DNA of 64,000 nucleotides, from NCBI RefSeq assembly GCF_044324875.1, contig NZ_CP172185.1. One strand, 5' to 3'. Numbering within the stretch: the first letter of the stretch is position 1; every line of letters starts with the position of its first letter. Under the pieces are notes generated by a model. It saw only the letters and a program-made list of their open reading frames with translations. It did not search any database and was not told where the DNA came from. The translations under genes were made by a program, and so were the position numbers. Shown here piece by piece: positions 1,527-60,002 of this stretch. The stretch comes from Escherichia coli. Its GTDB lineage: Bacteria; Pseudomonadota; Gammaproteobacteria; Enterobacterales; Enterobacteriaceae.

Positions 1527-3002
1527 TTAAATATGATGAATAATCACTTTGTTGCCCCCCTCGCTTTTCGCTTCGCGTAAGGCTTTATCTGCTTCCGTCA
1601 TGACAAGCGAGATATTACGTGTGTCACCCGTTGAAAAAACCGTGCCAATACTGATGGTCATTTGCTCAGGAACATCATATCTGTTACTAAAGCCGGTCAG
1701 GAGTTCGACATTTTTACGCATACGTTCCGCAATGATTTTTGCCTGGGCACTATTCAGTTCGGTAAATAGCAAGCCAAACACCTCACCCTCCAGTCGCGCT
1801 AAAATATCATCGGGGCGGATGCTTTGCTGGATAATATCGACAATTGAAACCAGCACTTTATCACCCACACGATGTCCCCATTGGGCATTGATGCGTTTGA
1901 ACTGATTAATATCAACCAGCATGACACAGAAGTCCTTAACAACAGGTCGCGACAATAATGACTCTACGCTGTTGAAAAAGTAGCGCCGATTATAAATATT
2001 GGTCAGCACATCATGAACTGCCAGTTTGCTGGAGAGTTGCAGTTCCTGAAAAATGTTATAAATCAGAAAAGACACAACAAACAGTTTACTGGAGACTTCA
2101 ATCCCGCGACTGATATACCAGATGGTGTAATTATACTCATCCAGAGTTAGTAGAAGTAAGTTGCAGCATAGCGATGCCAGACATAATAATGCTATTAACG
2201 GCCATAGTTCGCTGGCTAATCGTGTACGCATGATAATAAAGAACAGTAAAAATGCCCACAGACAAACCAATATTTTTGTATAGTTGATTCCCCAGGTCGC
2301 AGTATGGTTGTCCGGACAGTAATCGACGACATACAAAGAATAGTCAGCGTTATAACTGCTCAGATTGTGTGCCAGAAGGGGAAAAACTAAAAAAGGAATC
2401 AGCGCCAGTAACAGAATGCCAGTTTTTTTCTTATTGTTGTCAAGGATGTTGTCTTTCCCATAACAAAAGAGCGCCAGCGAGGTTAAACAAATGAAACTGA
2501 GTTGGCGGAAAATATAGAAAATAGAAACATCATTCGACTTTGTCTGGATCAGTGTACTGCCGTTGATTGGTTTATGGATAATTACAATGGTTTCAACTAA
2601 ATAGATAAGGCCACTTAAAAATGCAAGGCTTAAAATGAGTGTTGGTAAAATTTGTTTGTTAGTGAAATACTTCATTAACATGAAAAGAAAAATGACGGCG
2701 TTAAGGAAAAACAAAGCCACAACAACCATCAGGTAATTCATCTGTGGGATGAGTTTTACATTCGTGTTTTCGTTATATAAGGTAGTAATGCAAAATAAAA
2801 TTAACGTCAGCAATAAGCTGAAAATAAAAAAGCCTTGAGCTTTTAATTTTTGTGTACCCATAGAAGCCATAAAAAGGAGAGCAATGTGAGTGCTGGATTT
2901 TATTGATGGCAGAGATATATAGTTTTGACCAGGATCAATTTTCGTTAACGATAAAAAATATTTAAAGAATAACCCCAGGGAAACACGTGTTGACCGAATC
3001 AT
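1527..3002 (-). CDS. cdgI: c-di-GMP-binding degenerate GGDEF protein CdgI/YeaI
   Basis: 491-aa ORF with N-terminal multi-pass membrane region and C-terminal GGDEF-like domain whose signature reads EGEVF; conserved position between yeaJ and yeaH. Confidence 0.9.
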   Translation of the reverse strand: MIRSTRVSLGLFFKYFLSLTKIDPGQNYISLPSIKSSTHIALLFMASMGTQKLKAQGFFIFSLLLTLILFCITTLYNENTNVKLIPQMNYLMVVVALFFLNAVIFLFMLMKYFTNKQILPTLILSLAFLSGLIYLVETIVIIHKPINGSTLIQTKSNDVSIFYIFRQLSFICLTSLALFCYGKDNILDNNKKKTGILLLALIPFLVFPLLAHNLSSYNADYSLYVVDYCPDNHTATWGINYTKILVCLWAFLLFFIIMRTRLASELWPLIALLCLASLCCNLLLLTLDEYNYTIWYISRGIEVSSKLFVVSFLIYNIFQELQLSSKLAVHDVLTNIYNRRYFFNSVESLLSRPVVKDFCVMLVDINQFKRINAQWGHRVGDKVLVSIVDIIQQSIRPDDILARLEGEVFGLLFTELNSAQAKIIAERMRKNVELLTGFSNRYDVPEQMTISIGTVFSTGDTRNISLVMTEADKALREAKSEGGNKVIIHHI

Positions 3003-3148
3003 TTTTCCGAATGATTGTTTTCTGGAACTAAATTGTGTAAAGGTTATGCTGTCATATTTAAAGCGATTGTAAGCTAATGTATGTAATAAATGAGATAATT
3101 TACAGTGAGCTAAAAATCAGCCAGGCGATAATGACCCGGCTGATAGTT

Positions 3149-58788: not shown

Positions 58789-59115
58789 ATGACTAAAAAT
58801 ACTCGTTTTTCCCCCGAAGTCCGTCAGAGGGCGATTCGTATGGTTCTGGAAAGTCAGGGCGAATATGACTCACAGTGGGCGGCAATTTGTTCCATTGCCC
58901 CAAAGATTGGCTGTACACCGGAGACTCTGCGTGTCTGGGTACGCCAGCATGAGCGGGATACCGGAGGCGGTGATGGCGGGCTCACCACCGCTGAACGTCA
59001 GCGTCTGAAAGAGCTGGAACGTGAAAATCGTGAACTGCGCCGCAGTAACGATATCCTTCGCCAGGCTTCCGCTTATTTTGCGAAGGCGGAGTTCGACCGC
59101 CTCTGGAAAAAGTGA
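58789..59115 (+). CDS. IS629 transposase OrfA
   Basis: 108-aa [63 protein letters not shown]... matching IS629 OrfA. Confidence 0.9.
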
Positions 59116-60002
59116 TGCCACTGCTGGATAAGCTGCGTAAGCTGTACGGGGTCGGACCGGTATGCAGTGAACTACATATTGCCCCGTCAACGTATTACCA
59201 CTGTCAGCAACAGCGACATCATCCTGATAAACGCAGTGCCCGTGCGCAGCGCGATGACTGGCTGAAGAAAGAGATACTGCGCGTATACGATGGGAATCAT
59301 CAGGTATACGGTGTGCGTAAAGTCTGGCGTCAGTTGTTACGGGAAGGAATCAGGGTAGCCAGATGTACAGTGGCGCGCCTCATGGCGGTTATGGGACTTG
59401 CCGGTGTTCTCCGGGGTAAAAAGGTCCGCACTACCGTCAGCCGGAAAGCCGTTGCCGCAGGCGACCGCGTAAACCGTCAGTTTGTGGCAGAACGTCCTGA
59501 CCAGTTGTGGGTGGCTGATTTTACTTACGTCAGCACATGGCAGGGGGTCGTCTATGTGGCGTTCATCATTGATGTGTTTGCCGGATACATCGTGGGGTGG
59601 CGGGTCTCATCGTCTATGGAAACGACATTCGTGCTGGATGCTCTGGAGCAGGCGTTATGGGCCCGTCGACCGTCCGGCACAGTCCATCACAGTGATAAAG
59701 GTTCTCAGTATGTATCGCTGGCCTACACACAGCGGCTTAAGGAAGCCGGATTACTGGCATCAACAGGAAGTACTGGTGACTCGTATGACAACGCGATGGC
59801 GGAGAGCATCAATGGCCTTTACAAAGCGGAGGTAATACACCGTAAGAGCTGGAAAAACCGGACAGAAGTGGAGCTGGCCACACTCACGTGGGTGGACTGG
59901 TATAACAATCGACGATTGCTGGAAAGGCTGGGCCATATCCCACCGGCAGAAGCAGAAAAAGCTTATTATGCTTCCATCGGAAACGATGATCTGGCAGCCT
60001 GA
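59112..60002 (+). CDS. IS629 transposase OrfB (DDE integrase core)
   Basis: 296-aa ORF overlapping orfA by 4 nt; motifs [16 protein letters not shown] and [15 protein letters not shown]. Confidence 0.9.

Follow-up and report, generated by a model that had tools for sequence, protein, structure and literature searches.

DgcT (YcdT) and DgcX of Escherichia coli, which combine a MASE4 domain with a GGDEF domain containing an RxxD I-site, are described as functional cyclases (PMC10459773). CdgI (YeaI, b1785) is built in the same way, with a MASE4 domain followed by a single GGDEF domain and an RxxD I-site, as expected for a member of the DgcT/DgcX/CdgI group; unlike DgcT and DgcX, however, it carries EGEVF in place of the A-site motif and shows further active-site losses. 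MASE4-GGDEF homologues at 40–46% identity to CdgI carry GGEEF, consistent with their being the DgcT and DgcX paralogues, an identity that we treat as putative.

Sarenko et al. (2017) counted CdgI among the degenerate GGDEF proteins; its function was given as unknown, its A-site as degenerate and its I-site as intact. The purified His-tagged cytoplasmic domain was found to bind c-di-GMP by UV cross-linking, and the methods of that study also mention cross-linking with GTP (PMC5635695). In the same work, the GGDEF domain of CdgI contacted several other GGDEF domains strongly in two-hybrid assays, overexpression of CdgI was toxic, and the protein could not be detected under standard laboratory conditions, which was attributed to repression by CsrA (PMC5635695). 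Richter et al. (2014) describe CdgI likewise, as do Cimdins et al. (2023), in whose words it is "catalytically non-functional" (PMC10459773). By 2017, the literature had covered the degeneracy of the A-site, the preservation of the I-site and the binding of c-di-GMP; the feature analyzed here is already known and thus opens no new question.

We analyzed a window of 64,000 nucleotides from an E. coli genome (GCF_044324875.1, contig NZ_CP172185.1), which contains a complete minus-strand open reading frame of 491 codons (Table 1). The gene order is yeaG-yeaH-cdgI-dgcJ; yeaH and dgcJ flank cdgI, with yeaH and yeaG upstream and the downstream dgcJ cut by the left end of the window. The DNA of the locus matched 5424 of the 5426 complete E. 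coli genomes searched, and the gene is annotated there as cdgI. Compared with the K-12 locus (WP_000616433.1), the gene is 98.5% identical at the nucleotide level, and from residue 58 onwards the two proteins do not differ, so that they share the entire GGDEF domain with EGEVF and RPDD. The five amino-acid differences (Q3R, I7V, M9L, V46A and S57G) are all N-terminal, and three of them fall in an extension of doubtful coding status. Its slot between yeaH and dgcJ and its high identity to K-12 place the gene in the CdgI/YeaI orthologue group, so that the original prediction, which had named it CdgI/YeaI, was exact both in the identification and in the coordinates.

Table 1. Coordinates in the window of cdgI, its domains, its diagnostic residues and the adjoining upstream element
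Feature	Position	Strand	Basis
cdgI (yeaI) CDS, RefSeq model	1527..3002	-	ORF list, E. coli genome matches, K-12 annotation
Conserved CDS core, 447 aa from M45 (M48 alternative start)	1527..2870	-	Orthologue gene lengths, upstream stops
44-codon N-terminal extension, doubtful coding status	2871..3002	-	Stops in relatives, substitution pattern
Terminator-like hairpin and T-run after yeaH	3116..3144	-	Consensus scan, sequence
MASE4 integral-membrane sensor domain, aa 88-319	2046..2741	-	Pfam PF17158, E=1.6e-48
Degenerate GGDEF domain, aa 328-485	1548..2021	-	Pfam PF00990, E=9.1e-45; TIGR00254
N366 at second Asp of "DxD" (PleD D329), "DID" to "DIN"	1905..1907	-	Alignments
A373 at conserved Asp of "ND" pair (PleD D336), lost, "ND" to "NA"	1884..1886	-	Alignments
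Primary I-site RPDD, R396-x-x-D399, intact	1806..1817	-	Alignment; RxxD invariant in Escherichia orthologues
EGEVF at the A-site (GG(D/E)EF in active cyclases), aa 405-409	1776..1790	-	Alignments
R427, third primary I-site residue, kept	1722..1724	-	Alignment
G483 at PleD R446 position (beta/gamma phosphates of GTP), lost, "AKSEGGN" for "AK..GRN"	1554..1556	-	Alignments to active cyclases

The first 44 annotated codons of cdgI look non-coding or at least unconstrained. In-frame stops interrupt the corresponding stretch in E. ruysiae, E. marmotae, E. albertii, E. fergusonii, the Escherichia-like lineage L009 and Citrobacter, and the gene models of the orthologues in E. albertii, E. fergusonii, E. 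marmotae, E. ruysiae and Citrobacter span 445–448 aa. The stretch is open in E. whittamii-like sequences, but it is more diverged there. All 3 nucleotide differences between K-12 and the window in the extension are non-synonymous, whereas over the remaining codons of cdgI this holds for 2 of 22 (Fisher P=0.004), and a hydropathy scan found no hydrophobic segment in these 44 codons. The conserved start is predicted to be M45 or M48; residue numbers for CdgI in the literature follow the 491-aa model. Because a terminator-like hairpin follows yeaH, cdgI presumably has its own promoter in the spacer of ~110 nt, to which RstA and SrsR have been reported to bind. A -35/-10 match at 3041..3014 was rejected as a promoter candidate, the scan having found 6 such matches against 6.3 expected in shuffled sequence. 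A search for CsrA sites over 100 nt upstream and the first 150 nt of the gene found a single GGA, located at -5 relative to the annotated ATG.

Both domains of CdgI were recognized with high significance (Table 1). A hydropathy scan revealed about seven hydrophobic segments between residues 57 and 287, and the MASE4 domain had no sequence relative with a solved structure, even at E<=1. The PF00990 match covers the full profile (positions 1–161 of 161), and the TIGR00254 score of 123 bits lies well above the cut-off of 37.4, so the domain belongs to the GGDEF family; among the NCBIfam models, only the generic GGDEF domain model exceeded its cut-off, and no named cyclase equivalog did. The domain matched 41 distinct PDB sequences, almost all of them named as GGDEF-domain proteins or cyclases.

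We then located the A-site within this domain by alignment. When CdgI is aligned by HMMER to active cyclases of solved structure, its "arlEGEVFgllf" pairs without gaps with "srfGGEEFvilf" (6zxm), "gryGGEEFgiil" (3ign) and "aryGGEEFsvil" (5euh). In a phmmer alignment with 120 homologues, 95 sequences have GGEEF or GGDEF in the EGEVF columns. EGEVF occurs once in CdgI (codons GAG GGT GAG GTG TTT) and differs from GG(D/E)EF by a Gly-to-Glu change at position 1 and a Glu-to-Val change at position 4. Table 1 of Spurbeck et al. (2012) likewise gives KNAHDR-EGEVF for YeaI against the canonical KNDHDR-GGDEF (PMC3484386). A full-text literature search for the string "EGEVF" returned no match. Scanning the entire CdgI protein for GG[DE]EF found no intact motif elsewhere, so that the replacement of the GGDEF motif by EGEVF, as originally claimed, withstood the realignment. 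Since EGEVF lies at the homologous position of a very significantly matched domain, chance plays no part in this assignment.

The CdgI positions discussed below are given putative PleD equivalents, in a numbering that fits the alignment range (487 against 450 in chain 2wb4_A). In PleD, the ligands are D327 and E370 for the two Mg ions, N335 and D344 for the guanine base (PMC7288161), and K442 and R446 for the beta and gamma phosphates of GTP (PMC7288161, PMC3509222). The metal-binding Asp and the guanine-binding Asn and Asp of active cyclases are present in CdgI as D364, N372 and D381. The acidic fourth residue of the motif (PleD E371) is V408, and of the Lys and Arg that contact the GTP phosphates, K479 is kept but the Arg is replaced by G483. 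In addition, the Asp of the "ND" pair is A373, "ALY" has become "ALR", and N366 occupies the second position of "DxD", a change that is limited to E. coli and its close relatives.

The loci of the closest homologues were compared in E. albertii, E. fergusonii, E. marmotae, E. ruysiae, L009 and two Citrobacter lineages. In all seven lineages the homologue occupies the slot between yeaH (DUF444) and dgcJ (GAPES1-GGDEF), and the homologues are therefore positional orthologues. The motif is GGEEF in both Citrobacter lineages, EGEVF in E. coli and E. fergusonii, DGEVF in E. ruysiae, EGEEF in E. marmotae, EGDVF in a divergent cluster labelled E. coli, EGNVF in E. albertii and EGKRF in L009. Position 1 is thus Glu or Asp in all Escherichia lineages, and positions 1, 3 and 4 vary between species. 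The position of R446 is Arg in Citrobacter and Gly in every Escherichia lineage, including the divergent cluster; that of D336 is Asp in Citrobacter, Ala in E. coli, E. ruysiae, E. marmotae and E. albertii, and Asn in E. fergusonii and L009. RxxD and the equivalent of R427 are unchanged in every Escherichia lineage compared, and the equivalents of D364, N372, D381 and K479 are invariant across all orthologues. The Citrobacter orthologues (C. enshiensis and Citrobacter spp.; P0020, P0024 and P0025) share the slot and the architecture at 57–61% identity. Unlike CdgI, they retain GGEEF, the "ND" Asp, "ALY" and the Arg equivalent to R446, and therefore have the appearance of an ancestral form with nothing lost.

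Variation among the five closest sequences affects 3 of the 5 motif columns, compared with 25 of the 167 columns of the whole domain (hypergeometric P=0.024); when E. fergusonii or L009 was added, P rose to 0.37 and 0.55, the whole domain being too diverged in these cases. Pairwise dN/dS values between Escherichia species were 0.07–0.09 for the whole gene, the MASE4 half and the GGDEF half, except that those of the GGDEF half were higher in comparisons with E. fergusonii (0.11–0.15); the range across E. coli and four other Escherichia species was 0.03–0.09, and the intact Citrobacter pair gave 0.10–0.11. Values this low indicate that selection maintains cdgI and that the gene is not in decay. 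We read these data to mean that the cyclase chemistry was probably lost once, before the Escherichia species diverged, and that the former active-site loop would have been free to change since then, while the fold, the I-site and the membrane domain stayed under purifying selection. The comparative pattern is the signature predicted for an enzyme turned binding protein, not for a pseudogene.

The possibility that CdgI is still a working diguanylate cyclase, perhaps a weak or unorthodox one, despite its EGEVF motif has to be weighed against this pattern, because part of the literature treats it as such. Sanchez-Torres et al. (2011), as cited by others, is the source both for yeaI raising c-di-GMP in BW25113 (PMC6824119) and for a "verified diguanylate cyclase activity" of YeaI (PMC3484386), and YeaI figures as a cyclase in Kessler et al. 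(2021) and in Liu et al. (2019). The RefSeq/PGAP product name in K-12 and in most of the genomes listed is "sensor domain-containing diguanylate cyclase", although this name is assigned automatically by a domain-level rule. WspR, a foreign cyclase, corrected the biofilm defect that a CFT073 yeaI deletion mutant shows in no-salt LB, as would fit a missing cyclase, but it did not correct the defect in glycerol medium (PMC3484386). Retention of D364, N372, D381 and K479 is also compatible with activity; however, four conserved positions (Gly1 and Glu4 of the motif and the equivalents of R446 and D336) have been lost together, and WspR itself has been reported to be inactivated by Val at the fourth motif position (PMC3509222). 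Moreover, a motif that varies among Escherichia, even to EGNVF and EGKRF, amid purifying selection on the rest of the domain does not behave like an active site in use. We consider a working cyclase very unlikely. With Gly1, Glu4, the phosphate-binding Arg and the "ND" Asp lost and the I-site kept, CdgI most likely makes no c-di-GMP. The original prediction had called the protein catalytically inactive; the degenerate A-site and the further losses agree with this, but the wording was too strong, since the citations conflict and our literature search found no in vitro cyclase assay of CdgI. We infer its inactivity, though strongly, from the sequence.

The same evolutionary data bear on whether cdgI is a decaying, functionless remnant of a cyclase gene. 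Such decay would agree with the failure to detect the protein under standard laboratory conditions (PMC5635695), with the deletion of cdgI in S. flexneri 2457T, with the truncated "partial" products in many draft assemblies, and with genome H4, in which an IS200C-family transposase gene is annotated inside the matched cdgI region and the match is in two pieces. Nevertheless, 5410 of the 5426 complete E. coli genomes contain 80% or more of the region, and Povolotsky and Hengge, as cited, reported the product as a core c-di-GMP turnover protein found in 61 of 61 E. coli genomes. The low dN/dS of both domains, down to the level of the intact Citrobacter pair, an invariant I-site and c-di-GMP binding in vitro (PMC5635695) are likewise difficult to reconcile with decay, and we regard a functionless remnant as extremely improbable.

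The I-site is arranged as in a c-di-GMP receptor. R396-P-D-D399 is followed by ILARL and then by EGEVF, which places RxxD exactly five residues upstream of the A-site, and the third primary I-site residue, R427, is what we take to be the equivalent of PleD R390, consistent with the 487 to 450 alignment range in 2wb4_A. The construct of Sarenko et al. begins at QELQLSS, corresponding to residue 319, and its sequence is identical in the window allele; because all differences between this allele and K-12 lie at residues 3, 7, 9, 46 and 57, the published binding applies to it directly. The c-di-GMP binding included in the original prediction is therefore borne out by published biochemistry (PMC5635695). 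Its term "effector" is an overstatement, because it implies a defined output, whereas Sarenko et al. described the function as unknown and reported two-hybrid contacts with other GGDEF domains (PMC5635695).

The best explanation of these data is that CdgI is very probably a MASE4-GGDEF protein without cyclase chemistry that binds c-di-GMP at its I-site and serves as a receptor or modulator. MASE4 would anchor CdgI in the inner membrane and may sense a signal, and the GGDEF domain, unable to condense GTP, would bind c-di-GMP at the I-site; we hold these two steps jointly with high confidence. A third step, proposed by Sarenko et al., is less certain: ligand binding may modulate the contacts of CdgI with the GGDEF domains of other proteins, which it plausibly engages in non-productive heteromers.

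The residues that CdgI has kept in the A-site raise a further question. Because D364, N372, D381 and K479 are all retained, CdgI may still bind some nucleotide there. In the stronger form of this idea, the crippled A-site would bind GTP or another guanine nucleotide and CdgI would act as a nucleotide sensor, resembling the Caulobacter protein PdeA (CC3396), whose degenerate GGDEF domain binds GTP. In favour of a sensor, the four residues are invariant even though catalysis was apparently lost before the Escherichia species diverged; nucleotide binding would be compatible with binding at the I-site. On the other hand, the phosphate-binding Arg is lost in all Escherichia, and the retained residues may be conserved for the stability of the fold. 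From the sequence evidence at hand, we judge a nucleotide sensor to be highly unlikely.

The guanine- and metal-binding half of the A-site (D364, N372, D381 and K479) may also be used together with the I-site. CdgI would then sit in the membrane as a decoy subunit under the control of c-di-GMP, and possibly of GTP, and form dead heterodimers with active cyclases. We consider this unlikely. If it were true, CdgI would regulate particular cyclases in a dominant-negative manner, having evolved a single time, at the root of the genus Escherichia, out of a working enzyme that Citrobacter has kept.

Taken as a receptor or modulator that probably makes no c-di-GMP, CdgI has a practical bearing on annotation. 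The original prediction had cautioned against annotating the gene as an active diguanylate cyclase, and the RefSeq name and the papers that treat YeaI as a cyclase justify this caution. Counting CdgI among the c-di-GMP producers of a strain is probably wrong, as is explaining a cdgI phenotype by less c-di-GMP being made. The comparative result would also provide a clean natural example of the passage from enzyme to receptor, and it points to residues that are worth mutating.

The working principle proposed here for CdgI is that of PopA of Caulobacter and PelD of Pseudomonas, in which an inactive GGDEF fold senses c-di-GMP through RxxD; their N-terminal domains differ from that of CdgI, and their outputs are CtrA proteolysis and Pel polysaccharide, respectively. 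SgmT of Myxococcus xanthus is not orthologous to CdgI: it is described as a cytoplasmic hybrid histidine kinase, without predicted signal peptide or transmembrane segments, whose partner is DigR, whereas CdgI is a MASE4 membrane protein. SgmT has also lost both K442 and R446, whereas CdgI has lost only the R446 equivalent and keeps K479. The two proteins nevertheless share a degenerate A-site with Val at the fourth position (GGGVF in SgmT) and an intact RxxD I-site, and SgmT binds c-di-GMP and is a c-di-GMP receptor (PMC3509222).

We compared the annotated start of cdgI, which gives a 491-residue CdgI with a MASE4 domain and a degenerate GGDEF motif (EGEVF), with other versions of the gene. 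As listed in the table, the first 44 codons are the doubtful part of the protein. This stretch contained in-frame stops in six other lineages, and all three differences between K-12 and the window within it were non-synonymous. No hydrophobic segment was found when one was looked for in these 44 codons. The N-terminal stretch probably lies outside the conserved protein, and the conserved CdgI start is M45 or M48.

Features located in the window
Feature	Position	Strand	Remarks
First 44 codons of annotated cdgI	2871-3002	-	doubtful part of protein
Terminator-like hairpin, 11 pairs and T-run	3116-3144	-	directly 3' of yeaH
2.6-kb insertion relative to AST240	~8040-10678		matches IS21-family element (istA/istB, ISSso4-like)
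1.4-kb insertion relative to AST240	~31082-32513		matches IS3-like IS1397-family element
Genomic island	~40198-64000		matches island present in other E. coli
IS3-family transposase pair	58789-60002	+	orfA 58789-59115, orfB 59112-60002
ALIL frameshift pseudoknot	59070-59186		Rfam RF01497, 116 bits, at orfA/orfB overlap

Because the hairpin and its T-run immediately follow yeaH, transcription of cdgI probably starts at a separate promoter within the ~110-nt yeaH-cdgI spacer. In the 100 nt upstream of the annotated ATG and the first 150 nt of the gene, the only possible CsrA site was a single GGA at -5. Between 2500 and 3250, in the spacer and the 5' portion of cdgI, the G+C content was 33-37%, compared with ~50% for yeaH and yeaG. 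This low G+C content is consistent with a region encoding a membrane domain, in which Ile, Leu and Phe codons are abundant, and it could be relevant to silencing of cdgI.

Relative to strain AST240, the window carries two insertions. The IS21-family element lies within or adjoining yeaE, as in strain MS 200-1, and the IS1397-family element is placed between gdhA and topB. With a 1.8-kb query comprising the latter element and its gdhA/topB flanks, at least 80% of the query was found in about one-quarter of complete E. coli genomes. Colinearity with AST240 stopped near the ynjB/ynjA boundary, and the remainder of the window matched the genomic island. Among the island's products are a YadA-like adhesin, a GTPase-family protein and proteins with DUF932 and DUF4942 domains; coverage of this region did not exceed 78% in any complete genome. 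The ALIL pseudoknot was the sole Rfam match within the window, which contained no tRNA genes.

More than 1800 database entries from E. coli and Shigella (homologue clusters P0013, P0019 and P0023) are truncated "partial" CdgI products. Many of these stop near residues 280-285 although their contigs are long, a pattern suggesting that in some lineages assemblies repeatedly break within cdgI, probably at an IS insertion. The complete genome H4 matched cdgI in two separate pieces, and its annotation places an IS200C-family transposase gene inside the matching region. S. flexneri 2457T lacks cdgI.

We compared homologues at the same gene position in Citrobacter and Escherichia. The Citrobacter loci (L002 and L005) retained an intact GGEEF motif and the phosphate-binding Arg (the PleD R446 position), whereas in Escherichia (L003 and L006-L009) the motif was degenerate in every lineage, its form varying by species. 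The RxxD motif of the I-site, the probable c-di-GMP-binding site, was invariant across these Escherichia lineages. Because the motif is intact in Citrobacter and degenerate in all Escherichia lineages, the predicted loss of the cyclase site is placed, by sequence comparison, at the base of the genus Escherichia.
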